This document shows, piece by piece, positions 5,682 through 25,780 of a DNA stretch of 64,000 nucleotides. Position 1 is the first letter of the stretch, and the number at the start of each line of letters is the position of its first letter. The DNA is from Candidatus Aenigmatarchaeota archaeon (lineage in GTDB: Archaea > Aenigmatarchaeota > Aenigmatarchaeia > GW2011-AR5). The notes under the pieces were generated by a model that saw only the letters and a program-made list of their open reading frames with translations, was not told where the DNA came from and made no database searches. The DNA lies in the NCBI GenBank assembly GCA_043799385.1, contig JAZDNV010000001.1:102250-166249 (forward strand). Direction: 5' to 3'. The position numbers were made by a program, and so were the translations under genes.

Positions 5682-6761
5682 TCATCTCGTTATCTCCTGC
5701 TTTCTTACGAAATCATATAGATCTTTTGCTTTTCCCATCTCAAAATGCTCCCTCACCGGTTTTATCATCATATCCAAATAGTTTGCAGTCGCTGATTTCA
5801 GGTCAGAAGGGTGTAATTGGCCGTTGGCGAAGGCGTTTTCTAATTCCTTGTAATCGTAAAATTCTATATCACCTCCGAATTTCTCTGCCCGCTCGACTTT
5901 CATGCTTTTGAATTTTCTGAATACAAGCTCTTTGCAATACTCCAGTACAGGATTATCAATATGCTTTGCCGGGCAGAATGCTGACTGTATCTTTTTTGCT
6001 ATTTCATCCTTTGAGTCATGAACAAATATGGCTGTCTGCGGCTTGCTTTTACTCATCTTTGATGAAATTTCTGTATCTATCTTTTTGCTATCTTCAAACC
6101 CTTCAGGCTTTTTTACGCCTTCCAGACCCATGAGCATATGATGTGAGACTACAACAGGCTTCCACAAACCAAGCTTAGGACCGACCTCTCGTGCCAGTAT
6201 ATTTGCTCGTCTCTGGTCGACTCCGAGTTGGCATATATCCGCGCCTAATGCAAAAATATCTGCGGTTTGCATCATTGGATAGAAATATTGTGCAACCTCT
6301 TGCATCTCTCCCTGTGTGCGGCCCATTATAGTGAGCATCCTGTTAGCGCGATTAACCGTAGTGTTCTTGGAGATTAGGATTACTTTTTCCCAGTATGCCC
6401 TATCTGCCATTACATCAGAAGCCCAGACAAATTCAACTCCCTTGCCGACGCCTGCGGCCTTCCAAACCTCAATGAAATATTCACCAACCTTTCTTATCTT
6501 CTCCAGGTCTCCGCCCATCTTGTTGTTCAACCAACCAAACCAGTCTGCTATGTAAAGCTTGAAATGCACGCCTGCTTTCACCAAATCCTGTAGGAGCAAC
6601 GGCCTGTAAACGCCGAACGGTAGGTGCGCCAGTCCTGATGGTTCAAAGCCGTCATAGGCAATCGGATGATTCTTTGTCTGCAACAATTCGCGAAGTTCCT
6701 GCTCTGTTATGACTTCTTCGGCTACGCCTTTCACTAGCCGTAACCTTTCTTCTACGTCCAT
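5682..6761 (-). CDS. tyrS: Tyrosine--tRNA ligase (archaeal/eukaryal type)
   Basis: YDGFEPSG, YPMMQTAD, GVDQR, KMSKS, LHPSDLK. Confidence 0.95.
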   Translation of the reverse strand: MDVEERLRLVKGVAEEVITEQELRELLQTKNHPIAYDGFEPSGLAHLPFGVYRPLLLQDLVKAGVHFKLYIADWFGWLNNKMGGDLEKIRKVGEYFIEVWKAAGVGKGVEFVWASDVMADRAYWEKVILISKNTTVNRANRMLTIMGRTQGEMQEVAQYFYPMMQTADIFALGADICQLGVDQRRANILAREVGPKLGLWKPVVVSHHMLMGLEGVKKPEGFEDSKKIDTEISSKMSKSKPQTAIFVHDSKDEIAKKIQSAFCPAKHIDNPVLEYCKELVFRKFKSMKVERAEKFGGDIEFYDYKELENAFANGQLHPSDLKSATANYLDMMIKPVREHFEMGKAKDLYDFVRKQEITR

Positions 6762-6794: not shown

Positions 6795-7163
6795 TTATAA
6801 AAACCCCGCACTGACTTTCTTATGCGGTTCGCGAGAGTAGATGTGCGGCGCCTTTTCTATAAGCTTGTCTGATTCCTCTTGCGTAACTAGCATTGCCGTT
6901 TCCAATTTTTCCACGTCACGTATGCCTTCATACGGTCTTGCTGCCCTGCTAGGAACCAGACAGTATACTATAACCTTATGGGTTTTATCAGGCAATTCAT
7001 TGCCATTGCAGTCGAACGACATTGTATGTTGGCTACCGTCGTTTCTGTAAACAGCCATAACAGTGTTGCCTGTTGGGTATACGTCAATTGGGCATACTGC
7101 TCCAGGATGCCTTTCAAGCACCTTTCTTACAACCTTTTCGCGCACATCAAGTGCCATATTCAT
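6795..7163 (-). CDS. Hypothetical protein
   Basis: ATG at 7163 is preceded by a GAGGTGA RBS. No recognisable motif. Confidence 0.65.
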   Translation of the reverse strand: MNMALDVREKVVRKVLERHPGAVCPIDVYPTGNTVMAVYRNDGSQHTMSFDCNGNELPDKTHKVIVYCLVPSRAARPYEGIRDVEKLETAMLVTQEESDKLIEKAPHIYSREPHKKVSAGFL

Positions 7164-7286
7164 GATATCACCTCGTTTTTTATTGGATGAAATAAAAATC
7201 AATTTCGGAATTAAAGGCAGTTTTTAATGCTTTCGGAGGGAGCAGGTGACTGAAACCGAAGAAAGCGTTTATTTCTGCCTCAACTA

Positions 7287-7349
7287 TCAGGCATAGAAAT
7301 AACTATAGGAAAAGCTAAACCAGGATTTGTTATTTACGTTAGCTTTCAT
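7287..7349 (-). CDS. Putative leader peptide MKANVNNKSWFSFSYSYFYA
   Basis: 20-aa ORF with an AGGAGA RBS upstream. Its 3' end forms one arm of a hairpin. Confidence 0.5.
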   Translation of the reverse strand: MKANVNNKSWFSFSYSYFYA

Positions 7350-7458
7350 TCAAATCTCCTTTCATACCCTTTAACACAAAAATTTAAATATCAATACTTA
7401 AGCGCATCATGAAATAGCAAGCTTTTTTACCTGACAGTTCAATTAATTCAAGATAGTT

Positions 7459-8700
7459 ATGGAGATCAAAATACTCGGTTCTGGCCGCGAAGTAGGCAAG
7501 AGCGCGATACTGGTAAGCGACAAGAAAACTGACATAGTGATGGATTACGGCGTCAAGCTGCAGCCAGAGCCGCCGACCTATCCGATAAGGCCTAATAAAA
7601 TCGATGCAGCAATACTCACTCATGCGCATCTGGACCACTCAGGCGGATTGCCTATTCTTCACAAAAAATGGAGGAAGCCTTTATTCATGAACACGGTTAC
7701 GCTAGAATTGATAGAAATGCTCGTTTCAGATTCGATTAAGATTGCAAGGAAAGAAGGCTATTCAATACCATTTTCAAAGAACGACCTGAGGAGGATGATA
7801 AAGAACACAAAGATCGTGAACTACAATGAACAATTTCGCGTGGGCGATTTTAATTGCTCGCTCTATGACTCAGGCCATATACCAGGTTCATCGTCCATTC
7901 TTCTCGAAAACAAGAAAAGAATTTTCTATACAGGTGATATACAGACGGTTGACTCTAATCTTCTCAGGGCGTGCAGATTACCGGATAAAGCCGATGTATT
8001 GATAACAGAATCAACGTACAGCTACAAGGACCATCCGAAAAAAGAAGGGGAAGAAGAACGATTCTTAGCATCAATAGAAGAGTCGATGGCAAACGAGGAG
8101 TTTGCGCTCGTGCCGGTATTTGCTGTCGGCAGAGCGCAGGAAGTTCTGCTGATTCTTGAAAAATATGCAAACAAAATTGCATTGGACGGAATGGCAAAAG
8201 GCGCGAGCGAATTGATCGCGAGTTACGGCAGCTATCTGAGGGATGCAAAACGTTTCAAAAAAATACTTGGAAAGGTTCATTGGGTAAAAACCAGAGAAGA
8301 ACGTGAAAGGGCGTTGAAGAGATATCCGATAATACTCTCGTCTGCTGGTTTGTTGGGTGGAGGGCCAATCGTGCATTATCTTCGCGAGATAAAACATAAA
8401 CCAGAGAGCAAGGTGATATTCACAGGTTTTCTTATAGAAGACACGCCAGGCGCTAACTTGATACAGACAAAGATATTCGAGAACTCGGAAGAAAAGTTCA
8501 AGGTGCATTGCAAGCTGGAGCAATACGACATGAGCGCGCACACCGACCGCACGGGTTTGTTTGGAATAATAGAAAAACTAAAGCCATCTCAGGTTGTGTG
8601 CGTCCACGGCGAAAAATGTGAAGAGTTCGCATTCGATATTGAGCAGAAATTCGGAATAAGCGCAGTCGCACCGAAGAACGGTGAAACGATTAGAGTATAA
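7459..8700 (+). CDS. MBL-fold beta-CASP ribonuclease (aCPSF2-like, no KH domains)
   Basis: GSGREVG, THAHLDH, GHIPGS, YTGD, TESTY, AVGRAQE, SAH, VHGE. Confidence 0.92.
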   Translation: MEIKILGSGREVGKSAILVSDKKTDIVMDYGVKLQPEPPTYPIRPNKIDAAILTHAHLDHSGGLPILHKKWRKPLFMNTVTLELIEMLVSDSIKIARKEGYSIPFSKNDLRRMIKNTKIVNYNEQFRVGDFNCSLYDSGHIPGSSSILLENKKRIFYTGDIQTVDSNLLRACRLPDKADVLITESTYSYKDHPKKEGEEERFLASIEESMANEEFALVPVFAVGRAQEVLLILEKYANKIALDGMAKGASELIASYGSYLRDAKRFKKILGKVHWVKTREERERALKRYPIILSSAGLLGGGPIVHYLREIKHKPESKVIFTGFLIEDTPGANLIQTKIFENSEEKFKVHCKLEQYDMSAHTDRTGLFGIIEKLKPSQVVCVHGEKCEEFAFDIEQKFGISAVAPKNGETIRV

Positions 8701-11145: not shown

Positions 11146-11799
11146 TCAGAAGAATTCTTTTTCATCGTTTGCGACAATCATCTGCTTTATCAGGAAGTCC
11201 ACACCGCCTACCTTAGGCATACCATGGCCTGGCAGAAGATAGGACACAGGGTATTTTGCCAATTTCTTTAGCGAGTTGCAAAGCTTGTACTTGCTACCGC
11301 CTGGAAAATCGGTTCTGCCGATGCCGTCTTCAAATAACGTGTCTCCGGATATTAATATCTTCTTTTCTTTTTCATAAAGGCATATCGATCCAGGCGTATG
11401 ACCAGGAGTCGATATCACTTCAAACGTGAAGTTTGCCGTCCTTATCATACTGCCGTTCTTCAATACACGGTCAACGGTAGTGACTCTGGCCACTTCGCCG
11501 AACATCTCGGATAAAGTATCTATGCCACTTTCCAGCGATTCTTTGTCGTTTTCATGTATTGCAATTTCCGTCTTGAGCCAATCGCGAAATTTTCTGTTCG
11601 CGCCAGAATGGTCGTAGTGGCAATGTGTATTCACAATATATTTGATATTGCTGACATCGCACAATCTTGATATTTCTTCCTTTATTTCCGAAAAGAACAA
11701 ACCGCTGCCAGAGTCGACGATGAGTTCGCCATCAATCAGATAAATATTAGAATCATACCCTACTCCGCCCATCATTATGATTCCCTTCAAAATCTGCAT
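11146..11799 (-). CDS. MBL-fold metallo-hydrolase (glyoxalase II-like)
   Basis: THCHYDH, TPGHTPGS, SGDTLF, GRTD, PGHG. Confidence 0.92.
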   Translation of the reverse strand: MQILKGIIMMGGVGYDSNIYLIDGELIVDSGSGLFFSEIKEEISRLCDVSNIKYIVNTHCHYDHSGANRKFRDWLKTEIAIHENDKESLESGIDTLSEMFGEVARVTTVDRVLKNGSMIRTANFTFEVISTPGHTPGSICLYEKEKKILISGDTLFEDGIGRTDFPGGSKYKLCNSLKKLAKYPVSYLLPGHGMPKVGGVDFLIKQMIVANDEKEFF

Positions 11800-11821
11800 G
11801 ATAATACTATTCCACTAATTT

Positions 11822-12613
11822 TTAAATGCTTTGAATTTCTCTGCCTATTATGTCATGCGCATTGACGGAAAAGAACGAGCCGTTGTTTCTCAAAACCAGC
11901 AAATTCCCTTTTGCTGCCACAACACGGCCAGAAATGCTTATACCATCGCAGACCGAGATGTTTTCCGGGTCAGACAAAACATTTTGCAGTCGATAGAACC
12001 GTCTCATGTCGTAAATCTCAGGTTTTATGAGGTCAAATTTTTTTTCCTTCAGGCTAACCAGTGCCTTTGTTATATTTTCGGTAGCTACGTTCGGGTTGCC
12101 AAATAATGTTTTGTGTTTTTCGCTGCCAAGTATCCTATCAGCGATTGTCAGGTTATTCTTTATCTTTTGCTCTACGCTCCTCGCTTCTCTACCATCACGG
12201 ATGAACGCTATCTTTGCACCGAAATCCGCGCCCTGTTCGACCAGACGCTCTAATATCCTGTGTTCATAGGATATACCAACCTTCAGCAACGAGTCAAAAG
12301 CCGCCAGATAGATATAGTAATTGTTTTTTTCGCACTCGCTACGTTTTTTTGGGTTTATGCACTCGCCACTGCATCTTATGCACTGGAAGAAGTCGTCATT
12401 CACTCGGCAGTCATCGCAATTCCACCCATGCCTTATCTCCCTGTTGTCCGGGCACGGATGATGCTTGCCATCTTTAAAAAAACCAACGCAGAATTTTTTT
12501 CCAAGATTGATTGAGACATTTTCGTCGAATAATCGCATCCTACCAAAGTCCTTGCCGTCCTTTAAATTAAAGAAAGGTTCCCAGTTTACCCATTTGTAGC
12601 CGGTTATTTGCAT
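11822..12613 (-). CDS. DUF2797-like Cys-containing protein
   Basis: CxG/CP/CxxC clusters, YIYLA..LKVGIS, RLVEQGA, V.AKG pattern. Confidence 0.7.
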   Translation of the reverse strand: MQITGYKWVNWEPFFNLKDGKDFGRMRLFDENVSINLGKKFCVGFFKDGKHHPCPDNREIRHGWNCDDCRVNDDFFQCIRCSGECINPKKRSECEKNNYYIYLAAFDSLLKVGISYEHRILERLVEQGADFGAKIAFIRDGREARSVEQKIKNNLTIADRILGSEKHKTLFGNPNVATENITKALVSLKEKKFDLIKPEIYDMRRFYRLQNVLSDPENISVCDGISISGRVVAAKGNLLVLRNNGSFFSVNAHDIIGREIQSI

Positions 12614-13203
12614 ATTCGGTCAAAAGCCATCGTCACGTTTGCTAAAGTTTTTTCATCCATCAAGTCGTTTTTTAGCATTGAAAAAAGGTTTTTTGTCATC
12701 ATCTCGAATTCCTTTCTGTACCTGAATTTATATAAGGTTTCCCTGAAAAAATCAGAGGAATAGTTATCAATTCCGTGAAAGCTCAACCAAGGAAGACTCA
12801 TACCAATGAAATCATTGAGTTTTTCTATTCCCTTCCCGTGTTCTGAAAAGATTATGTAGTAATAATAGAACAGCTCGTCTGAGAATTTTTTTGCAATCTT
12901 ACGGTTCACGATTATATCTTCAATGAATTCAGGAACATCCATGAATTTTTTCAAGTTTGCTTTGAGCAGCATTCTCAGAATAATTATTTTTATCGCCTTT
13001 TCGTCACAGCTCTGCACGAACGGGTCTTTATAATCTATCGTGATGGCGGCGTCAAAATCCAAGATTTCTATTTTATTCGTATCTCCCACGGAAAAAACAA
13101 GATTTTCATACGGGACATCGATGAATTGTATGATTCTGTCAAATAGTTTGAATACGGTTCTTGTCCTGTCATCGGTCTTTTCGTATTTTTTTACAACGTG
13201 CAT
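12604..13203 (-). CDS. Hypothetical protein
   Basis: 199-aa ORF overlapping the start of the downstream gene. Confidence 0.7.
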   Translation of the reverse strand: MHVVKKYEKTDDRTRTVFKLFDRIIQFIDVPYENLVFSVGDTNKIEILDFDAAITIDYKDPFVQSCDEKAIKIIILRMLLKANLKKFMDVPEFIEDIIVNRKIAKKFSDELFYYYYIIFSEHGKGIEKLNDFIGMSLPWLSFHGIDNYSSDFFRETLYKFRYRKEFEMMTKNLFSMLKNDLMDEKTLANVTMAFDRICK

Positions 13204-13225: not shown

Positions 13226-14071
13226 TTAAATTACACCTTTCCACTCCTTTATCGCTTTTTCATAGCGTTCGATATTGCCTATATCGAACCATTGGCCGCT
13301 GAACGGGTAACCAAAAAGCTTATTCCTCTTGGCGATCTTCGGAAAAACGTCTTTTTCCAGAGACGAGAAGCCGTCCGGGATCATTTTTATGACATCCGGC
13401 TCAAGTATGTAAAATCCCGCGTTGATGAGGTTTGATTCGATTTTCTTCGGTTTTTCCATGAATTCCAGTATGTTAGTTCCGTCTAATTTCACGACGCCGT
13501 AATTTCCAGGCTCTTCAACCGTTGTCAGCGCAAGCGTCGCTAAAGCATCATTATTTTTATGTAGGCGGAACATCTCTTCAATGTTTATATTCTTTAATTC
13601 ATCGCCATTCGAAACTATAAACGGTCCATTCAGGTGGTTTTTCGCAAGCTTTATCGGCCCGGCCGTGCCCAATGGTTCGTCTTCTTCAACGTAAGTTATT
13701 TTAACGCCGAACTTCAAGCCATCGCCGAAATGGTTCCTTATCTTTTCTTTCATGTGGCCTACAGAAAGAATAATGTCGGTTATGCCATACTTCTTCAGCA
13801 GGTCGAAGAGATGCTCAAGCATGGCCTTACCCTTTATCGGCATCAACGCCTTTGGTATTTCATATGTTATCGGCCTCAACCTTGTTCCTTTACCACCGCA
13901 GAGTATTAGCGCCTTTCTCGGGCAGTTGTCGCCAAAAGCCCGCAATAGAAGCAGCTCAAGCGCATGACTCCTGTTCTTTATTGTGTGGCCATCGACAATT
14001 CTGTCGATCTTCTCAACAAATTCCTTGTCAACCGTTACGCTTATCCGCTCTTTCATAAAATTATCATACAT
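13226..14071 (-). CDS. Ribbon-helix-helix domain fused to sugar-phosphate nucleotidyltransferase (paralog 2)
   Basis: N-terminal KERISVTVDKEFVEKIDRIV..NRSHALE (CopG/NikR-like), then GGKGTRLRP..PK, EPLGTAG, NGD, WFDIG. The start may instead be ATG 14056. Confidence 0.88.
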   Translation of the reverse strand: MYDNFMKERISVTVDKEFVEKIDRIVDGHTIKNRSHALELLLLRAFGDNCPRKALILCGGKGTRLRPITYEIPKALMPIKGKAMLEHLFDLLKKYGITDIILSVGHMKEKIRNHFGDGLKFGVKITYVEEDEPLGTAGPIKLAKNHLNGPFIVSNGDELKNINIEEMFRLHKNNDALATLALTTVEEPGNYGVVKLDGTNILEFMEKPKKIESNLINAGFYILEPDVIKMIPDGFSSLEKDVFPKIAKRNKLFGYPFSGQWFDIGNIERYEKAIKEWKGVI

Positions 14072-14081
14072 CGTAATACTT

Positions 14082-14906
14082 TTAAATACTCCCCCACTCT
14101 TTTATCGCCTTTTCGTAGCCTTCATTGCTTCCGACGTCGAATATCTTTCCGTCGTGAACGAATCCGGACAACTGGTTTTCTCGTGCCAGCTTCGGGAATA
14201 ACGTTTCTTCTATCAAACCTTTACCGTTGTGGACAAGATTTAAAACATCAGGTTCAAGTATATAGAAGCCCGCGTTTATCAGGCTTGGTCCACTGGTCCT
14301 CGGATTTTCTATGAATTTTGTTATATGATTGCCCTTCATCGCAGCAACGCCACCCCTAGGATTTTCCGTGAGAACAAGCAGAATCGTAGCAAGCGTTGAT
14401 TGTTTTTTATGAAAATTTAGTATTTCGTAAATATCGGGATTCATCAGCGTATCAACGTTCATTGCAATGAAAGTGTCTTTTATATAATCCCTCGCCAGGT
14501 AAAGCGGATAGGCGGTGCCCATTGGTTTTTCCTCAGTGAGATAAGTTATGTTAACGCCAAATTTGCTACCATTACCGAAGTACTCCTTCACCTTTTCGTG
14601 CATGCTTCCCACTGATAGGAGAATATTCCTTATATCATACCTTCTGAGCATGCTTATCTGGTATTCAAGTATCGGCCGACCGTGAATAGTTATCATCGGC
14701 TTCGGTATCTCATAGGTCATAGGTCTTAGCCTTGCACCCGTTCCACCGGCAAGAATAAGTGCAGTGTTGATATCGGTTTTGCTCATCGCCCTCAACAAAA
14801 GGCTTTCGACTGCATGGCTCCTGCTCTTTATGTTCCTCTTGTCTATCATCCTGTCTAGCTTCTTCAGTATATCGTTCTTTATCGTTATCGTCACTCTTTC
14901 GACCAT
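14082..14906 (-). CDS. Ribbon-helix-helix domain fused to sugar-phosphate nucleotidyltransferase (paralog 1)
   Basis: N-terminal ERVTITIKNDILKKLDRMI..SRSHAVE, then GGTGARLRP..PKP, KPMGTA, NVD, IFDVG. Confidence 0.88.
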   Translation of the reverse strand: MVERVTITIKNDILKKLDRMIDKRNIKSRSHAVESLLLRAMSKTDINTALILAGGTGARLRPMTYEIPKPMITIHGRPILEYQISMLRRYDIRNILLSVGSMHEKVKEYFGNGSKFGVNITYLTEEKPMGTAYPLYLARDYIKDTFIAMNVDTLMNPDIYEILNFHKKQSTLATILLVLTENPRGGVAAMKGNHITKFIENPRTSGPSLINAGFYILEPDVLNLVHNGKGLIEETLFPKLARENQLSGFVHDGKIFDVGSNEGYEKAIKEWGSI

Positions 14907-15003
14907 TCATACACCAAACACACTTTATTATACAAAAGTATGAACGAAAAATATTTAAAAAGTATGAATAAGTATGAACATTAATATAAATAGGGTGTAT
15001 CAA
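14906..15003. promoter_or_regulatory. Divergent promoter with repeated AAGTATGAA boxes (candidate RHH operator)
   Basis: AAGTATGAA(C/T) at 14936, 14960 and 14970, inverted TTCATAC at 14906, and GTGTATCAA at 14995. CGAAAA-ATATTTAAA is BRE/TATA-like. Confidence 0.6.
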
Positions 15004-15005
15004 AA

Positions 15006-16079
15006 ATGATAATAAGAAGCCGGGCACCGGTGAGGATATCTTTCGGAGGCGGCGGGACAGACGTGCCGCCGTACTGCGATGAGCATGGCGGCTGCGTTCT
15101 ATCAGCAACTATAAACAAATACTCCTATGCGTCGCTGGAATCCAGGAACGACCAGGAAATCCACATAGAATCAGGCGATTTCCTGAAAAAACTGAGGTTC
15201 GGAAGCATAGACGAGATGGCATACGACAATGAGTTGGATTTATTGAAGGCTGCGATAAAAAACCTAAACACCACACGAATGGGATTGAACATATTTCTGA
15301 GGAGCAGCATCCCGCCGAAGTCCGGCCTAGGCGGCTCTGCATCATGCTTCGTTGCGCTAATCGGGTTGTTCAACCATATAAGGGCTGATAAGATGACAAA
15401 TTACGAAATAGCGGAATTAGCGCACAGGCTGGAGCGCGAGGAATTAAAGATAGCAGGCGGCAAGCAGGACCAGTATGCTGCTGTGTTCGGAGGGATAAAC
15501 TTTATTGAATTCGGTGGCAATTGGGTCAGGGTTAATCCTATAACAATGAAGAAGGACCACCTGCTGGAACTGGAGAAGCATCTGGTTCTTGTTTATGTCG
15601 GCGACCGGCCAAAAGAGGACGTTACCAGAGAATACATAACAGGAAAAACGAAGACAGATGACATAATCGGAGACCAGGTCAAATCGGTTCTAGAAAAGAA
15701 AGAATCGGTTATAGAGGCGCTTGACAGGACCAAAGAAATTGCGTTGGATATGAGGCGTGCGTTCATGATAGGAGATTTGATTGGCTTTGGTGAATTATTG
15801 CACAAGGCCTGGGAGGAGAAGAAGAAGTTTTCAAACATGATATCGAATAGATACATAGATGATCTGTATGCGTTGGCTAGAAAACACGGTGCAATAGGCG
15901 GGAAGATTACCGGTGCAGGTGGCGGCGGTTTCATGTTGTTCTTCTGCGAGCCGAACAAGGAGCAGATCGTTGCAGAGCAGCTTGAAAAGGCCGGCGCAAG
16001 GCCGACAAGTTTCGCGTTTGATTTTGATGGCTTGCAGACATGGGAAGTGGGTTATCTCACCGGTAGGGTGTACAGATGA
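15006..16079 (+). CDS. hddA: D-glycero-alpha-D-manno-heptose-7-phosphate kinase (GHMP family)
   Basis: APVRISFGGGGTD, PPKSGLGGS, GGKQDQY, GGKITGAGGGG; adjacent to gmhA/gmhB. Confidence 0.85.
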   Translation: MIIRSRAPVRISFGGGGTDVPPYCDEHGGCVLSATINKYSYASLESRNDQEIHIESGDFLKKLRFGSIDEMAYDNELDLLKAAIKNLNTTRMGLNIFLRSSIPPKSGLGGSASCFVALIGLFNHIRADKMTNYEIAELAHRLEREELKIAGGKQDQYAAVFGGINFIEFGGNWVRVNPITMKKDHLLELEKHLVLVYVGDRPKEDVTREYITGKTKTDDIIGDQVKSVLEKKESVIEALDRTKEIALDMRRAFMIGDLIGFGELLHKAWEEKKKFSNMISNRYIDDLYALARKHGAIGGKITGAGGGGFMLFFCEPNKEQIVAEQLEKAGARPTSFAFDFDGLQTWEVGYLTGRVYR

Positions 16080-16080
16080 G

Positions 16081-16116
16081 ATGAATGGCGATACAATTCA
16101 AAACAGCGGTGTTTGA
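16081..16116 (+). other. Intercistronic mini-ORF MNGDTIQNSGV overlapping an RBS hairpin
   Basis: Starts 1 nt after the hddA stop and ends TGA-AA-ATG. TTCAAAACA/TGTTTGAA inverted repeat. Confidence 0.4.
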
Positions 16117-16118
16117 AA

Positions 16119-16706
16119 ATGAAAGACAAAATAAAAGAAGCAATCGATGAGCACAGCAAATTAATAGATGAGATTGTAAGCGATTCTGAACTAATGAAAA
16201 AGATAGAAATCATAACAAAAAGAATAATTGAATCTTACAAGATGGGCGGCAAGCTCGTTATTTTCGGCAACGGCGGCTCAGCAAGCGACGCGCAGCATAT
16301 CGTCGCGGAGTTGATAAACAAGTTCAAGCTGGACAGACCGATGCTCAACGCACTGGCGCTGAACGTCAATACGTCTGTCATAACCGCTATTGCAAACGAC
16401 TCTTCATACGATGATGTTTTTTCAAAACAGATAGAATATCTGGTTGATTATAAGGACGTTGTTATCGGTATAAGCACCAGCGGAAAGTCAAGGAGCGTAA
16501 TAAAGGCAATGCAGACGGCGAGAAATAAGGGCGCGCTTACAGTCGGCTTTACAGGAAGGACAGGCGGACCAATGAAGGATTATGTTGACATATTATTGAA
16601 CATGCCATCCGATTCCACGCCGAGAATACAGGAGGCGCACATACTGGCTGGGCACATAATCTGTGAGCTGATAGAGCAGGAATTATTCGGTAAGAAATAT
16701 GAATAG
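16119..16706 (+). CDS. gmhA: Sedoheptulose-7-phosphate isomerase
   Basis: GNGGSASDAQH, TAIAND, STSG, TPRIQEAH. Confidence 0.95.
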   Translation: MKDKIKEAIDEHSKLIDEIVSDSELMKKIEIITKRIIESYKMGGKLVIFGNGGSASDAQHIVAELINKFKLDRPMLNALALNVNTSVITAIANDSSYDDVFSKQIEYLVDYKDVVIGISTSGKSRSVIKAMQTARNKGALTVGFTGRTGGPMKDYVDILLNMPSDSTPRIQEAHILAGHIICELIEQELFGKKYE

Positions 16707-17274
16707 AGCTGTATTCCTAGACAGGGACGGCGTAATTATCCGTCAGATGGAGGTAGTTTGCAAGCCAGAGCAGCTAAAAATACTGAAGGATTCAGGCAAG
16801 GCCATAAAGTTACTGAACAATCTTGGGTTTCGTGTTGTGGTTGTCACGAATCAGCCGCAGGTTGCCAAGAACCAATGCACGGAAAGAGATGTCAGAAAAG
16901 TCAACGAATCGCTAAGGGCGAAGCTAATGAAGAGCGGTGCAAAGGTGGATGCTATATATTTCTGCCCTCATCATCCCGAAAGGCAGCATAGAGACATAAT
17001 AGAAAAATGCAGAAAGTATAGGATAGCGTGTGAGTGCAGGAAACCCGATATCGGGATGCTTTTAAAGGCAAAGAAGAAATTTAACATTGATATACATTCA
17101 TCTTTTATTGTTGGCGACCGCACAGTCGATGTACAGACAGGAAAGAATGCTGGTTGCAAGACAATATTAGTGAAAACAGGCTATGCCGGCAGCGACAAGA
17201 AATATGATGCGAAACCGGATTTCATATGCAGAGATTTGTATCGTGCAGCAAAGCTTATTGAGGGATTCGTATGA
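16699..17274 (+). CDS. gmhB: Heptose-1,7-bisphosphate phosphatase (HAD IIIA)
   Basis: FLDRDG, VTNQ, CPHH, CECRKP, VGDR..D. Confidence 0.92.
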   Translation: MNRAVFLDRDGVIIRQMEVVCKPEQLKILKDSGKAIKLLNNLGFRVVVVTNQPQVAKNQCTERDVRKVNESLRAKLMKSGAKVDAIYFCPHHPERQHRDIIEKCRKYRIACECRKPDIGMLLKAKKKFNIDIHSSFIVGDRTVDVQTGKNAGCKTILVKTGYAGSDKKYDAKPDFICRDLYRAAKLIEGFV

Positions 17275-18755
17275 AGGCAGTTATCATGGCCGGCGGGGTT
17301 GGAGAACGTCTGAGGCCGTTAACAGACGAAATGCCGAAGCCTATGCTGAAAATTGCAGGAAAACCCATACTTCAACACCAGATAGAGCTGCTGAAACGTT
17401 ATGGAATAGATGAAATAGTCATATGTGGTTCGCATCTTTTTGAAAAGATTAAGGAGTACTTTGGCGACGGCTCAGCTTTCGATGTAAGGATAGAATACTT
17501 GAGGGATGAACAACTGGGAACAGGCGGCGCGCTGAAGAATGCCGAGAAATTTTTAGACGAAACATTTATTCTTCTCTATGGCGATACGATGATGAGGATG
17601 AATCTAAAACGATTGATAGATTTCCACAAAAAAAGCAACGCAACGGTAACAATAACGCTGCATGAAACTGACCATCCGCATGACAGCGATTTGGTAAAAA
17701 TAGATGAAAATGGCATGGTCGTCCGCATATTCAACAAGCCGAATACGGGTATGCCTTCAAGACTAGGTAAATCATCGGTCTTTATCGTCGAACCTTCTGT
17801 GCTCAGTGATATACCTGAAACAAGAAACGATTTTGAAAAGGATGTAATATCAAAATTAGTACCGTCAGGAAAGGTTTACGGATACTGCACAAGTGAATTC
17901 ATAAAAGACATCGGAACAACCGATAGGTACAAAAAGGTCAATGAGATATTCAGTAAGGAAAAAGAATTGAAAGTTATTGCTAAGGAGATAAGAAAACACA
18001 TAATTAAAATGACAACTTGTGCCAAATCTGGTCATCCGGGCGGCTCGCTATCAGCAGCTGATATAATAACGGCATTATATTTCTATAAAATGAGATATCG
18101 TCCGGATGAGCCCAACTGGAACGAGCGCGATAGATTCATTCTATCAAAAGGACACGCATGCCCAGTTCTGTATGCGGCTCTTGCAATTGCCGGATTTTTT
18201 CTGGCTGATGAATTGATGACATCAAGAAAAATTAATTCAAGGATACAGGGTCACCCGTCAATGATTCTTCCGGGAATAGATGCATGTTCGGGTTCTCTCG
18301 GCCAGGGATTATCTGTTGCGAACGGCATCGCTTTATCAGCTAGGATTGATAAAAAAGACTACAACGTGTATATTTTACTTGGCGACGGTGAGTTGCAGGA
18401 AGGCCAGATATGGGAGGCTGCGATGACATCGTCCCAATACAAAATTAATAACCTTACCGCTATAGTTGATCGTAATGGATTACAGATTGATGGCAATACT
18501 GAAGACGTAAAGGGGTTGAATCCGTTGGCAGAAAAGTGGAGATCATTTGGTTGGCACGTTATTGAGATAGACGGTCATGACTTTCCACAGCTGTTGTACG
18601 CATTGGATATGAAGAGCGATAGACCAAAGGTAATAATTGCAAACACAATTAAGGGCAAGGGTGTCTGCTCAATGGAAAATAATATAGAATTCCATGGAAA
18701 GGTTTTGTGTGATGAAGAATGCCAAAGAGCGATGAAAGAATTAGAATCGCAATAG
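17271..18755 (+). CDS. Fusion: HddC-like heptose-1-phosphate nucleotidyltransferase + transketolase N-terminal (TPP-binding) subunit
   Basis: aa 1-~228: MAGGVGERLRP..PKP, LGTGG, LYGD, KDIGT. aa ~229-494: SGHPGGSLS, DRFILSKGH, GSLGQG, GDGELQEG. No stop between the two parts. Confidence 0.9.
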   Translation: MKAVIMAGGVGERLRPLTDEMPKPMLKIAGKPILQHQIELLKRYGIDEIVICGSHLFEKIKEYFGDGSAFDVRIEYLRDEQLGTGGALKNAEKFLDETFILLYGDTMMRMNLKRLIDFHKKSNATVTITLHETDHPHDSDLVKIDENGMVVRIFNKPNTGMPSRLGKSSVFIVEPSVLSDIPETRNDFEKDVISKLVPSGKVYGYCTSEFIKDIGTTDRYKKVNEIFSKEKELKVIAKEIRKHIIKMTTCAKSGHPGGSLSAADIITALYFYKMRYRPDEPNWNERDRFILSKGHACPVLYAALAIAGFFLADELMTSRKINSRIQGHPSMILPGIDACSGSLGQGLSVANGIALSARIDKKDYNVYILLGDGELQEGQIWEAAMTSSQYKINNLTAIVDRNGLQIDGNTEDVKGLNPLAEKWRSFGWHVIEIDGHDFPQLLYALDMKSDRPKVIIANTIKGKGVCSMENNIEFHGKVLCDEECQRAMKELESQ

Positions 18756-19180
18756 GATGCGACCATAGGGGATACGACTTGAAGGAGTCGTTAAAGGGTT
18801 ATCTAGCTGGTAATGGCCATGAGGTAAAGGATTTCGGTACACACAGCAAAGATAGCGTTGATTACCCAGTTTTTGCAAAAGAGGTTGCAATGGCCATTGC
18901 AACCGGTGAATACAATCGCGGCATTCTCATATGCGGCAGCGGCATAGGCATGCAAATAGCTGCCGACAAGATAAAGAAGATACGGGCTGCGAACTGCCGT
19001 GATGAAGATGATGCGTACAGGAGCAGGGCGCACAATGATGCGAACGTGCTGACACTAGGCGCAGATAAAATTACTGGTGATTTGGCAAAGAGGATTGTTG
19101 ATAAGTGGCTGACAACTGATTTCGAGGCAGGAAGGCACCAGAGAAGAGTAGACATGATAGAGGAGATGGAAAATGGTTAA
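18719..19180 (+). CDS. rpiB: Ribose-5-phosphate isomerase B
   Basis: IAIGCDHRG, VDYP, CGSGIG, HNDANVL, FEAGRHQRRV. Start position uncertain. Confidence 0.92.
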   Translation: MPKSDERIRIAIGCDHRGYDLKESLKGYLAGNGHEVKDFGTHSKDSVDYPVFAKEVAMAIATGEYNRGILICGSGIGMQIAADKIKKIRAANCRDEDDAYRSRAHNDANVLTLGADKITGDLAKRIVDKWLTTDFEAGRHQRRVDMIEEMENG

Positions 19181-19829
19181 GGTTGGAGCATCGTTGTTGG
19201 CAAAACAAGAGGAGATGGAAAAAGAATCATTAGCCAAGAAAATAACCAAACTGGAAAAGGCAGGAATAGATATGATACACTGGGACGTCATGGACGGTGT
19301 GTATAACCCTATTAATACCATGGCTTTCCAGGGTCCTGATGTGATAAAGGAACTGAGGAAAATAACAGGGTTGCCGTTTGTCGCCCACTTGATGATAGCC
19401 AACCCGATAGAAAAAATACAGGCGTTCCATGAAGCAGGATGCGATATTATCGTTTTTCATTACGAAGCGTGCAAGAAAGACGATGTAAGCAAGACGATAG
19501 ACGAGATAAGGTCATACAAAAGAATACCAGGCATTGCCATAGAGCCTGATACTCCAGTTGGGGTAATCTATCCGTATCTTGATCTATTAGATTACGTGCT
19601 CATAATGACCGTAAAAACGGGTTATGCTGGTCAGAAATTTATTGATGAGACCAATAAGATACGCAATCTTGCGTTAAAAAAAGGCAGTTTCGAGATAGAT
19701 GTAGACGGTGGAATTAACGACATTACAGGGAAATTATGCATAGGGGCAGGCGCAACTGCCCTGTCAGCTGCCAGCTACATATCAGGCAGCGATGATTACA
19801 GCGTTGCAATAAAAAAATTGCGTGGTTAA
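19173..19829 (+). CDS. rpe: Ribulose-phosphate 3-epimerase
   Basis: HWDVMDG, HLMI, MTVKTGYAGQ, VDGGI. Confidence 0.92.
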   Translation: MVKVGASLLAKQEEMEKESLAKKITKLEKAGIDMIHWDVMDGVYNPINTMAFQGPDVIKELRKITGLPFVAHLMIANPIEKIQAFHEAGCDIIVFHYEACKKDDVSKTIDEIRSYKRIPGIAIEPDTPVGVIYPYLDLLDYVLIMTVKTGYAGQKFIDETNKIRNLALKKGSFEIDVDGGINDITGKLCIGAGATALSAASYISGSDDYSVAIKKLRG

Positions 19830-19830
19830 A

Positions 19831-20745
19831 ATGAAATCAACACGTGATGCGTTCGGTGAGGCACTTGCAGAATTTGGCAGCGATGAGCGAATAGTCGTTC
19901 TTGACGCTGACCTATCCAAATCAACTAAGACATGCATGTTTGCAGAAAAATTCCCAGACAGATTTTTTAACGTCGGTGTAGCTGAGCAGGATCTATTCGG
20001 AACTGCAGCAGGATTTGCTCTAACAGGAAAAATACCGTTTGCAAGCACTTTCGCCATCTTTGTTTGCAGGGCATGGGAGCAGATTAGAAACGCAATTGCA
20101 TATCCAAACCTTAACGTGAGAATTGCTGCAACACATAGCGGCATAAGCTGCGGTGAGGACGGGGTTTCACATCATGCTACAGAGGATATTGCATTGATGC
20201 GTGCAATACCGAACATGGCAGTAATCGTTCCAGCGGATGCAATAGAAACAAAAAAAGCAATAAAGGCAACGCTAGATTGGCGTGGCCCTGTCTACATAAG
20301 GATGAACAGGCCGAAGAGCCCGTTAATATTCAATGATGATTATGACTATGAAATCGGCAACGCCAGCGTAATCAAAGACGGCAGCGATGTTTCAATAATA
20401 GCATGTGGCATCATGGTCAGCGAGGCGGTGAAGGCATCAGAGATACTCAATAAAAACGGCATATCAGCAGAGGTTGTAAACATGCACACGATAAAACCGC
20501 TTGACGCAGAAACAATTTTAAAGACAGGAAAAAAGACAGGGAGAATAGTTACGTGCGAAGACCACGGTATCATTGGCGGCCTTGGCTCTGCGGTCGCAGA
20601 AGTCATCGCAGGAAGCAATATCAAACTGGAGAGAATCGGCGTTAAAGGCTTTTGCGAATCCGGGAGCCACGAAGAACTTTTTATGAAATACGGATTGAAT
20701 GCAGAAAGTATTGCAAACGCTATTAAAAATCAGGTGATTAAATGA
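19831..20745 (+). CDS. Transketolase C-terminal subunit
   Basis: TRDAFG, DADLSKST, NVGVAEQ, GEDGVSH, EDH..GGLGSAV. Confidence 0.93.
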   Translation: MKSTRDAFGEALAEFGSDERIVVLDADLSKSTKTCMFAEKFPDRFFNVGVAEQDLFGTAAGFALTGKIPFASTFAIFVCRAWEQIRNAIAYPNLNVRIAATHSGISCGEDGVSHHATEDIALMRAIPNMAVIVPADAIETKKAIKATLDWRGPVYIRMNRPKSPLIFNDDYDYEIGNASVIKDGSDVSIIACGIMVSEAVKASEILNKNGISAEVVNMHTIKPLDAETILKTGKKTGRIVTCEDHGIIGGLGSAVAEVIAGSNIKLERIGVKGFCESGSHEELFMKYGLNAESIANAIKNQVIK

Positions 20746-21512
20746 AGATTTTTATTGACACATCAAAGCTAAACGAGATAAAAAAGATAAACGAACTTGG
20801 GGTATTGGACGGAGTTACGACCAACCCGTCTTTGATAAAACAAGCGGTCGACGATTTGAAGAGCAAAGGAGAAAATATTGATTTAGAGGATTACATAAAG
20901 GAAATCTGCAAAGCCTCAGGAAAGAATAAACCTGTCAGCTTAGAGGTAATAAGCACTGATGTAGCGTCGATGGTAAGCGAGGCAAAACTATTGCACAAGA
21001 AGTTCAATTTTGCAAACAACGTTGTAATAAAAATACCGCTAACTGCAGATGGATTAAAGGCGATTAATGAATTGAATAAATCCGGTATAAAAACGAATGC
21101 AACACTGATAATGACAGTCGAGCAGGCATTGCTCGCAGCAAAGGCCGGAGCAACTTACGTATCACCATTCGCCGGAAGAATAGACGATTATCTACGGAGC
21201 GGTACGGAATACAAAAAATCCGACTACTTTCCAGCGCATGGAACAGGAAAAGATGATAACGGAATAGTCAGCGGTGTTGACCTTGTGAGAAAGATCACAG
21301 ATATATTCGAAATTTTCAAAATAGATACAGAGATAATAGCGGCAAGCATTCGGAATGCAAGACAAGTTCGTGAAGTCGCATTAGCAGGCGCGCATATAGC
21401 GACTATACCGTTTTCTGTAATCAACGAGATGCTAAAACATTCAAAGACAGATGAAGGAATAATAAAATTCTCAGAGGATACGATACCAGAATACAGGAAA
21501 ATATTCGATTAG
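20742..21512 (+). CDS. tal: Transaldolase (TalC/FSA-fold family)
   Basis: TTNP and KIP (Schiff-base Lys). SLEV Glu and SPF Phe are transaldolase-type rather than FSA-type. Confidence 0.88.
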   Translation: MKIFIDTSKLNEIKKINELGVLDGVTTNPSLIKQAVDDLKSKGENIDLEDYIKEICKASGKNKPVSLEVISTDVASMVSEAKLLHKKFNFANNVVIKIPLTADGLKAINELNKSGIKTNATLIMTVEQALLAAKAGATYVSPFAGRIDDYLRSGTEYKKSDYFPAHGTGKDDNGIVSGVDLVRKITDIFEIFKIDTEIIAASIRNARQVREVALAGAHIATIPFSVINEMLKHSKTDEGIIKFSEDTIPEYRKIFD

Positions 21513-23685: not shown

Positions 23686-24957
23686 ATGAAGATATCTATA
23701 ATAGGCTCTGGTTATGTCGGCCTGTCCACAGGACTAGGACTTGCGTCACTCGGTTATGAAATCATATGCGTTGATGTAGACAGAGGCAAAGTCGATTCGA
23801 TAAATAACGGAAAACTGCCGATTTATGAGGACGGGATGCAGGAAATACTCAACAAAGCTCTTAAGAAAAAGACATTCAAAGCTACAACAGACTTTGCGTA
23901 TGCTATAGAAAATTCAGAAGTAAGCTTTGTAGCAGTTGGCACGCCATTCAAGGACGGTCTTTATTTGAAATATGTTATGGACGCTGTAACCGATATATCA
24001 AAAGCATTGAAAAGCAAGAAAGGATACCATCTAGTTGTCATGAAGTCAACGGTTCTGCCAGGAACGACAGAGAGCATCATACCAATACTTGAAAAATCCT
24101 CGAAAAAGCGCGTTGGAAAAGATATTGGTCTGTGCATGAATCCTGAATTCCTGAGAGAAGGCAAAGCCCTTGATGATTTCCTGAAGCCAGACAGGATTGT
24201 AATAGGCGAATTTGACAAGAAATCAGGAGATGCTCTGGAAAAACTTTACAAGGGCGTCAATGCGCCTGTTTTCAGAACCAACCTTAAGACGGCGGAGATG
24301 ATAAAATATGCGGCGAATACATTCCTTGCATCTAAAATCTCTCTTATAAATGAAATAGGCAATATCTGCAAAAAGCTAGGTATAGATACGTATGATGTTG
24401 CAAAAGGAATCGGTTATGACAAGAGAATCTCGCCGCAATTTCTGGAATCAGGTATAGGTTTTGGCGGTTCATGCTTCAAAAAGGATTTGTCTGCACTGGC
24501 AAAAAAAGCAAAGAGTCTCGGAGTCGATACGAGAATAATAGATGCCACGCTCTGCGTAAATGAGAACCAGCCGCTAAAAATAACTGAGTTTTTGAAGGAC
24601 GTCAAGAACAAGAAAGTGACGATACTCGGCCTTGCCTTCAAGCCGGGAACAGACGATATACGCGAATCGCCTGCGATAAGGATAATAAGTGAGCTTTTGA
24701 GGAAAGGAGCGTGCGTTTCTGCGTATGACCCGAAGGCAATGGACAACGTTAAGAGGGTATTCCCGAACATAACCTATTGTCGCAGCGCAAAAGAGGCGCT
24801 GGAAAACGCTGATGCCTGCGTAATTTTGACTGAATGGGAGGAGTTTAAAAAACTTTCCGAGAAGGAATTTTCAGTGATGAAAAATAAAGTGATAGTAGAA
24901 GGCAGGAAAACGTTGAATCCTAAAATAGTTAAAAAATTTGATGGTGTCTGCTGGTGA
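23686..24957 (+). CDS. UDP-glucose/GDP-mannose dehydrogenase family protein
   Basis: GSGYVG, KSTV, NPEFLREG, GFGGSCF, GLAFKPGTDDIRESP. Confidence 0.93.
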   Translation: MKISIIGSGYVGLSTGLGLASLGYEIICVDVDRGKVDSINNGKLPIYEDGMQEILNKALKKKTFKATTDFAYAIENSEVSFVAVGTPFKDGLYLKYVMDAVTDISKALKSKKGYHLVVMKSTVLPGTTESIIPILEKSSKKRVGKDIGLCMNPEFLREGKALDDFLKPDRIVIGEFDKKSGDALEKLYKGVNAPVFRTNLKTAEMIKYAANTFLASKISLINEIGNICKKLGIDTYDVAKGIGYDKRISPQFLESGIGFGGSCFKKDLSALAKKAKSLGVDTRIIDATLCVNENQPLKITEFLKDVKNKKVTILGLAFKPGTDDIRESPAIRIISELLRKGACVSAYDPKAMDNVKRVFPNITYCRSAKEALENADACVILTEWEEFKKLSEKEFSVMKNKVIVEGRKTLNPKIVKKFDGVCW

Positions 24958-24961
24958 TGAT

Positions 24962-25780
24962 ATGAAAGCGATAATACTTGCTGCCGGACGCGGAACAAGG
25001 CTGCGCCCATTAACATACGGCATACCTAAACCGCTTCTTCCGGTAAAAGGAACGCCGATGATAGACTGGGTCATACGAAGCATTTCCAGTGAAAAGATAG
25101 AAGAGATAATTGTTGGCACGTCAGGAACAATTGGAGAAAACATGGAAGAGCGGGTGCTATCGCATATTCACGGCATCTGCATCGATTCCTATCTTAAGAA
25201 CCAGACTTATGATTGCAAAATAAGAACGGTCCCTACTTTACAGCGCGAGACAGGCGGTGATTTGAGGTATATTCTTGAAGAAATCAACATGAAGAAAGGA
25301 AAGATAATAGTTGTTTATGGCGACAATCTCACGTCATTCAACATTGACAAACTTCTCGATTATCATGAAAAATGCAAAAACGAGCTTGGCATCGCAGGCA
25401 CAGTAGTCTTGTTCGAATCACCTGAGAGCGATGTGAACCGCTTCGGGATAGCGAAATTAAAAAACGTGAAAGGCTTTGATTTGGTAACATCTTTCATAGA
25501 AAAGCCGTCGTTGCAAGAAGCACCGTCACGATACGCGAGTGCCGGTTATTACATTCTTGAAGTGGACGAGGTATTCGATATGCTTCCGCATGAAAAGGTA
25601 AAGGTTGAGCATTCAGTATTCCCAGTCTTGGCAAGCCAGAACAAACTTGCTGGTTATATAACAAAGCTTCCTTACTGGATTGATATAAGCACCTTGGAGG
25701 CATACATTACGGCGAACAAGATGGCTCATGACGGTCTTATAATCCCACCATCGCTTCCGAATAAAGGAAACAACATATGA
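24962..25780 (+). CDS. Sugar-phosphate nucleotidyltransferase
   Basis: LAAGRGTRLRPLT..PKP, YGD, EKP, WIDI. Confidence 0.9.
   Translation: MKAIILAAGRGTRLRPLTYGIPKPLLPVKGTPMIDWVIRSISSEKIEEIIVGTSGTIGENMEERVLSHIHGICIDSYLKNQTYDCKIRTVPTLQRETGGDLRYILEEINMKKGKIIVVYGDNLTSFNIDKLLDYHEKCKNELGIAGTVVLFESPESDVNRFGIAKLKNVKGFDLVTSFIEKPSLQEAPSRYASAGYYILEVDEVFDMLPHEKVKVEHSVFPVLASQNKLAGYITKLPYWIDISTLEAYITANKMAHDGLIIPPSLPNKGNNI

Follow-up and report, generated by a model that had tools for sequence, protein, structure and literature searches.

Conserved TCATAC repeats and NikR-type ribbon-helix-helix domains suggest undescribed switches of cell-surface sugar synthesis in a DPANN archaeon

INTRODUCTION

Ribbon-helix-helix (RHH) domains are obligate dimers that place a two-stranded antiparallel sheet in the major groove of DNA, and small RHH repressors such as CopG, MetJ, Arc and omega of pSM19035 act on tandem repeats. 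Other repressors combine a DNA-binding domain with an enzyme, as in PutA (RHH and proline dehydrogenase), BirA (helix-turn-helix and biotin ligase) and NadR (helix-turn-helix and NMN adenylyltransferase). Here we report on two adjacent genes, P0001 and P0002, whose products join an N-terminal RHH domain to a sugar nucleotidyltransferase (NTase) domain. The genes lie in a 64,000-nucleotide stretch of Candidatus Aenigmatarchaeota archaeon (GCA_043799385.1, contig JAZDNV010000001.1, positions 102,250-166,249 of the forward strand), hereafter called the window. The source organism is a tiny, symbiotic archaeon, represented by a 786-kb genome of 91% completeness.

Two described systems are of particular use for comparison. 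One paper (PMC7055735) describes NikR as a tetramer with two RHH dimers and gives GTATGA-N16-TCATAC as the operator of the E. coli protein. Among nucleotidyltransferases, GMPPA is presented in a second paper (PMC11228364) as a paralogue of GMPPB that has no catalytic activity of its own but binds GDP-mannose and regulates the enzyme. A literature search for fusions of an RHH domain with a nucleotidyltransferase or pyrophosphorylase found no paper, which is not proof of absence given that most subscription journals lay outside the search. A search that paired DPANN with GDP-heptose likewise found no paper on the RHH-nucleotidyltransferase architecture. A report on DPANN archaea (PMC6393860) describes minimal nucleotidyltransferase toxin-antitoxin genes, which belong to a different family.

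The best explanation of the findings presented below is that both genes are members of a large, uncharacterised family of one-component regulators in DPANN archaea and bacteria of the Candidate Phyla Radiation (CPR). These organisms have tiny genomes for which few regulators are known, and the cell surface is considered important for their life on host cells. The conserved TCATAC repeats that precede both genes and the neighbouring heptose operon suggest switches of cell-surface sugar synthesis that have not been described before.

RESULTS

Both proteins join a NikR-type RHH domain to a nucleotidyltransferase domain

The two genes lie on the minus strand with 10 bp between them. P0002 (14082-14906) encodes a 274-residue RHH and nucleotidyltransferase-like protein that we call 'type B' on the strength of its open reading frame (ORF), Pfam matches, position in the family tree and active-site residues. 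P0001 (13226-14071) encodes a 'type A' RHH and sugar-1-phosphate nucleotidyltransferase of 281 residues as called, assigned from its ORF, Pfam matches and catalytic motifs; its start is probably at 14056 (MKER...) rather than 14071, which would give 276 residues. The two products are 47% identical across 275 residues.

Matches of the single sequences to Pfam RHH_1 are marginal, with 20.4 bits for P0002 (cut-off 20.5) and 14.8 bits for P0001. A six-frame scan of the genome, 91% complete as it is, gives 23.6 and 17.9 bits, respectively, and the two genes are its only RHH_1 matches. At the profile level, however, the assignment is firm. The first 46 residues of P0002 (14769-14906, minus strand) match E. 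coli NikR (1q5v, 2hzv) in a phmmer search at E=4.8e-4, with the strand ERVTITI placed over QRVTITL of NikR. A profile built from 60 N-terminal sequences matches RHH proteins exclusively, RHH antitoxins included, and finds E. coli NikR at E=4.2e-8, CopG at 1.9e-3 and P. horikoshii NikR at 2.2e-3. An AlphaFold2 monomer model (pLDDT 90.7 overall, 82-92 in the RHH part) has residues 1-10 extended and helices at residues 11-20 and 29-42, with SRSHAVE at the start of helix 2; the model holds no partner chain, so that DSSP cannot call the strand. The corresponding domain of P0001 (13919-14056, minus strand; MKERISVTV...NRSHALE) is placed by its row in the N-terminal alignment and by the 17.9-bit RHH_1 match. 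The RHH domain shares with NikR an R-x-T-x-T recognition strand (R-V-T-I-T) and (N/S)RS at the start of helix 2. In NikR, the residues that we take to make the contacts are Arg3, Thr5 and Thr7.

The remainder of each chain is a PF00483 NTP_transferase domain, spanning residues 53-275 of P0001 (E=4e-47, 161 bits over positions 1-240 of the 245-position profile) and residues 49-269 of P0002 (E=5e-36, 125 bits, profile positions 2-240 of 245). Since both proteins end with this domain, neither has an LbH tail. The closest solved relatives of the NTase domains are GDP-mannose pyrophosphorylases (VTC1 of Arabidopsis and GMPPB/GMPPA), MurU, HddC and RmlA, and a fold search with the model returned only nucleotidyltransferases. 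Scores against the NCBIfam equivalog models stay below the cut-offs, both for HddC (NF049965, cut-off 300 bits; P0001 126, P0002 97, the NTase domain of the heptose operon 108) and for man1P_GTase (cut-off 440 bits; P0001 184, P0002 133).

An earlier, sequence-only reading of the window had described two adjacent paralogs, each with an RHH domain of about 45 residues and a full nucleotidyltransferase domain that lacks an LbH tail. ORFs, Pfam and the profile agree with this description, and the match to NikR together with the strand-helix-helix layout of the model leads us to assign both N-termini to the NikR-type RHH domains. The reading of these domains as RHH antitoxins was rejected, as they lack a toxin partner and are fused to PF00483 rather than to a minimal nucleotidyltransferase. 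A search for longer fused forms with this RHH domain (481-2000 residues) found none, which is a weak negative. Five proteins of 263-353 residues (P0168, P0169, P0178, P0210 and P0211) carry the same NikR-like RHH domain on a chain whose remainder has no Pfam match, and these may represent another fusion partner.

A TCATAC repeat precedes P0002, P0001 and the heptose operon

P0002 is separated by a 99-bp spacer (14907-15005) from a divergently transcribed heptose operon that begins with hddA. This spacer holds three direct copies of AAGTATGAAY and an inverted copy at the P0002 start. Their core hexamer, GTATGA/TCATAC, is the published NikR half-site, whereas the arrangement is different: direct repeats with an N4 spacer, and thus a 10-bp phase, in place of inverted repeats with N16. 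We predict that TCATAC-N4-TCATAC and the other hexamers of the spacer constitute a conserved operator. The exact pair occurs once in the 786-kb genome, at 14962-14977 (minus strand; GTATGAataaGTATGA on the plus strand), with 29 nt between it and the ATG of hddA. This predicted operator pair is termed O1.

A second predicted operator, O2 (14928-14943, minus strand), is recognised from its repeats and layout, and comprises one perfect and one degenerate hexamer (TCATAC-tttt-GTATAA). It lies 8 nt downstream of a TATA-like box on the P0002 side and fits the pattern TATA-N(8-11)-TCATAC of other type B loci. A single GTATGA hexamer in gene sense (14907-14912, minus strand) abuts the P0002 start codon, as it does in L007, L010, L011 and L012 (homologous loci are cited by L numbers). 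Between O1 and O2 lies a central TATA-like box (14952-14959; tatttaaa on one strand and tttaaata on the other), which possibly serves both divergent promoters; it was placed from the sequence and by comparison with L012, which has the same two-sided arrangement of a central TATA flanked by two perfect operator pairs. The junction between the P0002 stop and the P0001 start carries an operator-like site, O4 (14064-14079, plus strand; GTATTAcgatGTATGA in gene sense), akin to GTATTACgatGTATTAC, which precedes the L059 type A gene, and to GTAATActtcGTAATA in L021 and L036. Another TATA-like box (14081-14088, minus strand; tatttaaa in gene sense) overlaps the P0002 stop codon, and L059 shows the same order of TATA, operator and ATG. 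From this order we infer that P0001 would have a near-leaderless mRNA starting at about 14058, with the MKER codon at 14056. All TATA boxes and transcription starts were read by eye.

A weight matrix was built from 10 sites of the nine other type B loci that supply one, the site of L013 having been dropped because it lies at a contig end. The best match of this matrix in the genome is 14959-14980 (30.0 bits), and the second best is 14061-14082 (18.7 bits), which contains O4. A search for a wider regulon in the same genome with the exact motif and the matrix found, beyond the sites at the two genes, none above 16.1 bits. The sequence AGTATGAA has six other copies in the window, all single and intragenic.

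In gene sense, TCATAC-N4-TCATAC is found upstream of the P0002 orthologue in 10/10 type B loci, whose spacers are otherwise dissimilar and, by our reading, usually show the motif 8-11 nt after a TATA-like box. The motif was counted on either strand over 78 loci (10 type B and 68 type A), with L073 and L079 left out because their matches fell short of the N-terminus. There are 19 exact occurrences in 12.1 kb of upstream DNA, distributed over 18 loci, versus 2 in the other 874 kb, an enrichment of about 690-fold. Eight of the 68 type A loci have the exact motif. In CPR bacteria and ARMAN-4 its orientation is reversed (GTATGA-N4-GTATGA), and the variants TCATAT and GTAWTAC are seen in other type A loci. 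This cis-element tracks the gene family through promoters of both the archaeal and the bacterial type, and it equals the site of NikR, which has the same recognition strand. The most plausible explanation of the TCATAC repeats is therefore that the encoded RHH domain binds to them.

Two homologous spacers have additional features. The 561-bp spacer between the type B gene and hddA of L015 (4176-4718) holds several repeated hairpin-like blocks, such as cccacgactttagtcgtggg. In L010 (6849-6994), a separate inverted repeat (gtggttgtgg...ccacagaaaccacaac), which a different factor might recognise, separates hddA from the type B operator.

P0001 and P0002 belong to separate clades of a widespread family

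The best 120 homologues of P0002 all have about 275 residues and the same N-terminal domain, with the start cut in a few, and their source annotation names them only as sugar phosphate nucleotidyltransferases. At least 590 loci of the RHH-nucleotidyltransferase family were found in species-representative genomes, and 80 of these were kept for comparison. The 80 loci come from Aenigmatarchaeota, Altiarchaeota, Woesearchaeota, Nanoarchaeota, Parvarchaeota (including ARMAN-4), a Nanohalarchaeota bin, one Asgard archaeon and many CPR/Patescibacteria. The RHH-only profile matches 1094 clusters (50% identity) at E<=1e-3.

In a quick IQ-TREE phylogeny of 88 rows (LG+G4, with SH-aLRT as the only support measure), the RHH-nucleotidyltransferases split from their RHH-less neighbours with a support of 99. 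P0002 falls in an 11-row clade of Aenigmatarchaeota (type B) and P0001 in a 32-row clade dominated by Woesearchaeota and Nanoarchaeota (type A), each again with a support of 99. P0001 is 69% identical to L040 and is nearest in the tree to L021, L036 and L079. Given the separate supported clades and the identity of 47%, a recent tandem duplication as the origin of the pair was rejected.

Two adjacent full-length copies occur in 1/41 related genomes, which is that of the window itself, and a second RHH copy is present in 1/80 homologous loci. The sequence-only reading had treated the two genes as a regulator pair; as a general unit, such a pair does not hold up, and the two clades separated anciently. 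The locus with the second copy is L044, from an uncultured archaeon, in which a canonical type A gene is preceded, at a distance of 319 bp, by another RHH-nucleotidyltransferase gene (5894-6664 and 6983-7840 being the two genes). This second copy has wholly lost the G-loop and the PK motif and is 31% identical to its type A neighbour. By sequence, L044 is an independent pairing of a degenerate with a canonical RHH-NTase.

The two types differ in their neighbours. The type B gene is divergent from hddA in 9/9 homologous loci that reach upstream; the contig of L013 is cut 17 bp upstream of the gene. All type B loci of sufficient length encode a canonical NTase in addition, be it fused to gmhB (gmhB::NTase), as a free hddC, or as an RHH-less NTase immediately downstream. 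The gene that follows type A, on the same strand, encodes a phosphoglucomutase/phosphomannomutase in 23/70 loci (25 if the next three genes are considered), and in 0/10 type B loci. L055 has a further, 704-residue phosphoglucomutase-like protein, recognised by Pfam only.

Several other arrangements were seen in the same loci. The gmhB::nucleotidyltransferase fusions have 416-441 residues, and occur in L010 (3956-5224) and L014 (869-2194), for which there are Pfam matches, and also in L011, L015 and L016. L016 (5289-6881) additionally encodes a 530-residue fusion of GHMP kinase and SIS protein (hddA::gmhA). In CPR loci (L067, L070, L072, L081, L083, L084 and L058), the neighbours are genes of central sugar metabolism, namely those for glyceraldehyde-3-phosphate dehydrogenase, ROK and PfkB kinases, a 6-phosphogluconolactonase-like protein and phosphoglycerate mutase. 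In the DPANN loci L051 and L055, the RHH-nucleotidyltransferase gene adjoins a GlpX fructose-1,6-bisphosphatase gene.

The type B active site is remodelled

The G-x-G-T-R loop, the lysine of PK, the aspartates of xGD and D-x-G and the lysine of EKP have catalytic roles established with RmlA and GlmU. The catalytic motifs of P0001 are complete (GGKGTRL, PK, LGTAGP, NGD, EKP and GQWFDIG). P0002 keeps PK and FDVG but deviates at four motifs, having GARL for GTRL (Thr to Ala), GTAY for GTAG (Gly to Tyr), NVD for NGD (Gly to Val) and ENP for EKP. The first three of these changes had already been attributed to 'paralog 1' in the sequence-only reading, and all are in P0002; the change to ENP is additional.

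To place these differences in the context of the family, residues were tabulated for 201 members, of which 96 are nearer to P0001 (type A) and 105 nearer to P0002 (type B), a sample biased to relatives of P0002. The G-loop threonine is found in 74/96 type A and 18/105 type B proteins, and an arginine or lysine at the G-loop in 90/96 and 56/105, respectively. Position 56 is lysine in 62/96 type A proteins and aspartate or glutamate in 85/105 of type B. The middle residue of NGD is glycine or alanine in type A (92/96), and valine (V151) in type B (103/105). The tryptophan of G(Q)W, present in 95/96 type A proteins, is absent from the five commonest residues listed for type B. All 96 type A proteins have the lysine of EKP, where type B has 81 lysines, 17 arginines and 3 asparagines, with asparagine in P0002. 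Three positions are invariant in type B, namely K69, D152 and D257 (105/105 each), and the mean column conservation of the NTase domain is 0.67 for type A and 0.68 for type B. At the G-loop position of the 10 type B loci, arginine or lysine occurs in 3 and threonine in none, and some type B members lack the G-loop altogether. Thus, the P0002 branch, which is specific to Aenigmatarchaeota, has a remodelled NTP-binding loop and other changed pocket residues within a domain that is conserved as a whole.

A related contrast is seen across the family. Among 58 full-length, PF00483-bearing cluster representatives, taken from the best 150 matches of the RHH profile, the RHH residues R4 (R/K), T6 (T/S), T8, R29 and S30 are kept in 58/58. 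All five catalytic positions are kept in just 6/58, a count to be read with the caveat that cluster representatives over-represent fast-evolving, degenerate forms. To judge from these residues, the family is one of DNA-binding proteins in which the enzyme-like domain has, in many members, ceased to be an enzyme.

The heptose operon and other neighbouring genes

The divergent operon (15006-21512, plus strand), annotated with Pfam and NCBIfam, consists of hddA-gmhA-gmhB, an NTase::transketolase-N fusion, rpiB, rpe, the C-terminal half of transketolase and transaldolase. Its first three genes, which start at 15006, encode a GHMP kinase, an SIS protein and a HAD phosphatase according to Pfam, so that the divergence from hddA-gmhA-gmhB described previously is real. 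HddA, GmhA and GmhB are the top NCBIfam matches of the three proteins, at full length and in all cases under the curated cut-offs. The fusion gene (17271-18755, plus strand, 494 residues) joins an NTP_transferase domain (residues 2-226) to the N-terminal half of transketolase (residues 236-489), and is followed at 18719-21512 by the genes from rpiB to transaldolase. With these pentose-phosphate enzymes at hand, the heptose operon seems to encode its own route to sedoheptulose-7-phosphate. The window had been said to hold two further, ordinary nucleotidyltransferases. Both are present, although the one at 17271-18755 is this fusion; the other is called at 24938-25780.

Downstream of P0001 on its strand (11146-13203, minus strand) lie a 199-residue ORF that matches nothing in Pfam (12604-13203), a DUF2797 gene and a gene for a metallo-beta-lactamase-fold protein. 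All three are found beside the type B gene in L008, L012, L014, L015 and L016, and also in L007, where the 199-residue ORF is recognised by a weak match; the truncated L013 has two of the three. A phosphoglucomutase/phosphomannomutase gene is located elsewhere in the window's genome (G000 contig C29:45406-47403), where it adjoins a further nucleotidyltransferase match, a 433-residue open frame with one in-frame TAG.

DISCUSSION

The domain identities, the conservation and uniqueness of the operator sequence, the two clades, the residue patterns and the synteny described above are direct observations. We consider it probable that they reflect the following mechanism. Oligomers of the enzyme-like domain would hold RHH dimers together, and these dimers would occupy TCATAC hexamers in 10-bp phase, downstream of the TATA box and ahead of the transcription start, and thereby repress transcription. 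In the window, O1 would act towards hddA and O2 towards P0002, around the central TATA, with a further site at the P0001 start. P0002 would be a largely non-catalytic sensor that couples transcription of its own gene and of the heptose operon to a metabolite of the pathway, the most likely ligand being GDP-heptose as co-repressor. P0001 would be catalytically active as an NDP-sugar pyrophosphorylase and would, in addition, repress the promoter of its own gene.

The proposed division of roles between the two proteins is drawn from their clades. Type B combines a remodelled active site with divergence from hddA in all nine loci, which suggests a sensor-repressor. In the clade of P0001 the catalytic motifs are preserved and a phosphoglucomutase gene often comes next, as might be expected of an enzyme under autoregulation; P0001 itself retains every motif, and probably serves in biosynthesis as well as in regulation. 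The proposal of the sequence-only reading that the two proteins regulate glycan precursors is thus partly supported, by the NikR-type RHH domain, the predicted operator in 14907-15005, the changed P0002 pocket and the constant hddA link. Its remark that the two need not be biosynthetic may apply to P0002, in view of the catalytic loop of that clade, and probably not to P0001. The survey of neighbours that it had called for places type B beside heptose genes in all nine homologous loci that reach upstream and type A with phosphoglucomutase in about a third of the loci.

Several points weigh against this mechanism. DNA binding, repression rather than activation, the identity of the ligand and the loss of catalysis by P0002 are inferred from the observations listed above. 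The relaxed tandem motif is present in just 16/68 type A loci, the promoter elements depend on reading by eye, and the 6/58 count carries the sampling bias already mentioned. The operator lies within 62 nt of the hddA ATG in the window and in 5/9 homologous loci with hddA, but this distance is 110-502 nt in the other 4/9, so that control of the heptose operon, unlike autoregulation, is not universal. We take autoregulation to be general in type B; direct control of hddA is likely in the window. P0002 also retains the G-loop arginine, the PK lysine and both aspartates (R59, K69, D152 and D257), and may for this reason still be an enzyme. Moreover, the window's own putative HddC domain has a loop that departs from the textbook (GVGERL), which makes single motif deviations weak evidence of inactivity.

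These last points bear on the possibility that P0002, like BirA or PutA, is both an active nucleotidyltransferase and an autoregulator, with changed motifs that reflect another substrate such as heptose-1-phosphate or another NTP. The equal conservation of the type A and type B domains is in keeping with this view, as are HddC model scores for both proteins (126 and 97 bits) that are close to the 108 bits of the operon's own NTase. We nevertheless judge an active P0002 to be unlikely, since 49/105 type B proteins have no arginine or lysine at the G-loop and some have no loop, position 56 is acidic in most of them, every sufficiently long type B locus has a separate canonical NTase, and catalytic positions are lost across the family while RHH residues are retained.

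Another arrangement would be a hetero-oligomer like GMPPA-GMPPB, in which the degenerate P0002 senses the product and throttles P0001 allosterically, with DNA binding being secondary. The short distance between the genes on one strand, the GDP-mannose pyrophosphorylases (including the GMPPA/GMPPB complex) among the closest solved relatives, the second degenerate-canonical pairing in L044 and the precedent of GMPPA (PMC11228364) all favour such an assembly. Yet a type A neighbour is missing from 10/10 other type B loci, adjacent full-length copies are confined to one of 41 genomes, and the conserved predicted operators point to DNA binding as the core function. Assembly of GMPPA with GMPPB is mediated by the LbH domain, which P0001 and P0002 lack. 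As a replacement for the repressor mechanism this assembly seems to us rather improbable; a pairing of the GMPPA/GMPPB kind is nonetheless compatible with that mechanism. Least probable, in our assessment, is that the N-terminal domain merely dimerises or stabilises ordinary enzymes and that TCATAC is a promoter element or the site of an unrelated factor. RHH_1 scores of single sequences at or under the cut-off would agree with this idea. It is opposed by the identity of the hexamer with the NikR half-site and of the recognition strand with that of NikR, by the enrichment of the repeat upstream of family genes and its persistence across archaeal and bacterial promoter types, by the invariance of the RHH contact residues beside decaying enzyme residues, and by a genome in which no other RHH_1 protein was detected.

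A bolder proposal, which we advance only tentatively, is that RHH-nucleotidyltransferases are major, unrecognised metabolite-sensing regulators of DPANN archaea and CPR bacteria, combining the head and hexamer of NikR with a sensor of the NDP-sugar pyrophosphorylase fold that has repeatedly become a pseudoenzyme. The window would then represent a case with P0002 as pseudoenzyme and P0001 as active enzyme, one operator code, control of the synthesis of GDP-heptose and other surface-glycan precursors and possibly mixed oligomers. New in this study are the pair drawn from two clades, the degenerate type B branch with its fixed link to heptose genes, the internal predicted operator before P0001 and the family-wide contrast between an invariant RHH domain and catalytic decay. 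A predicted operator for at least 590 loci and 1094 clusters would define directly testable regulons of sugar-nucleotide supply. If the proposal is correct, the DNA-reading module of NikR has been re-used with a different sensor, and an enzyme fold has decayed to a sensor many times within the same chain as a DNA-binding domain. It also provides a concrete model of feedback control for an unusual heptose operon with its own pentose-phosphate enzymes.

Comparison with known systems helps to define what is shared and what is distinct. HddC and the GDP-mannose pyrophosphorylases have the same full PF00483 domain, and P0001 keeps their motifs; P0001 and P0002 differ from them by the added N-terminal RHH domain, and P0002 also by its four altered motifs. 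GMPPA-GMPPB (PDB 7d72-7d74) is, together with VTC1, among the closest solved folds and sequences for both NTase domains. GMPPA, a degenerate paralogue that still binds sugar nucleotide as a feedback sensor (PMC11228364), is a precedent for type B, although GMPPA acts on an enzyme rather than on DNA and has an LbH tail. With PutA, BirA and NadR, the present proteins share the fusion of a DNA-binding domain to a pathway enzyme whose occupancy can set transcription, a comparison that fits P0001 best. The fold differs, being PF00483 here, and the type B branch appears to have given up catalysis. As proposed here, several RHH dimers would sit side by side on short, promoter-overlapping repeats, as is the case for CopG, MetJ, Arc and omega. 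Those proteins stand alone with 45-100 residues or use small co-repressors, whereas a 230-residue enzyme fold is part of the same chain here.

The likeness to NikR covers several features. Both systems would have a one-component design in which an RHH domain is followed by a C-terminal domain that binds a ligand and oligomerises. In NikR that domain is an ACT-like, nickel-binding tetramerisation domain, whereas PF00483 occupies the C-terminal 230 residues of P0001 and P0002, and the presumed ligand is a sugar metabolite rather than a metal. By sequence, then, the family is like NikR in its DNA-reading head, its hexamer and its one-component logic, and is set apart from NikR by its sensor domain and by the geometry of its predicted operator.

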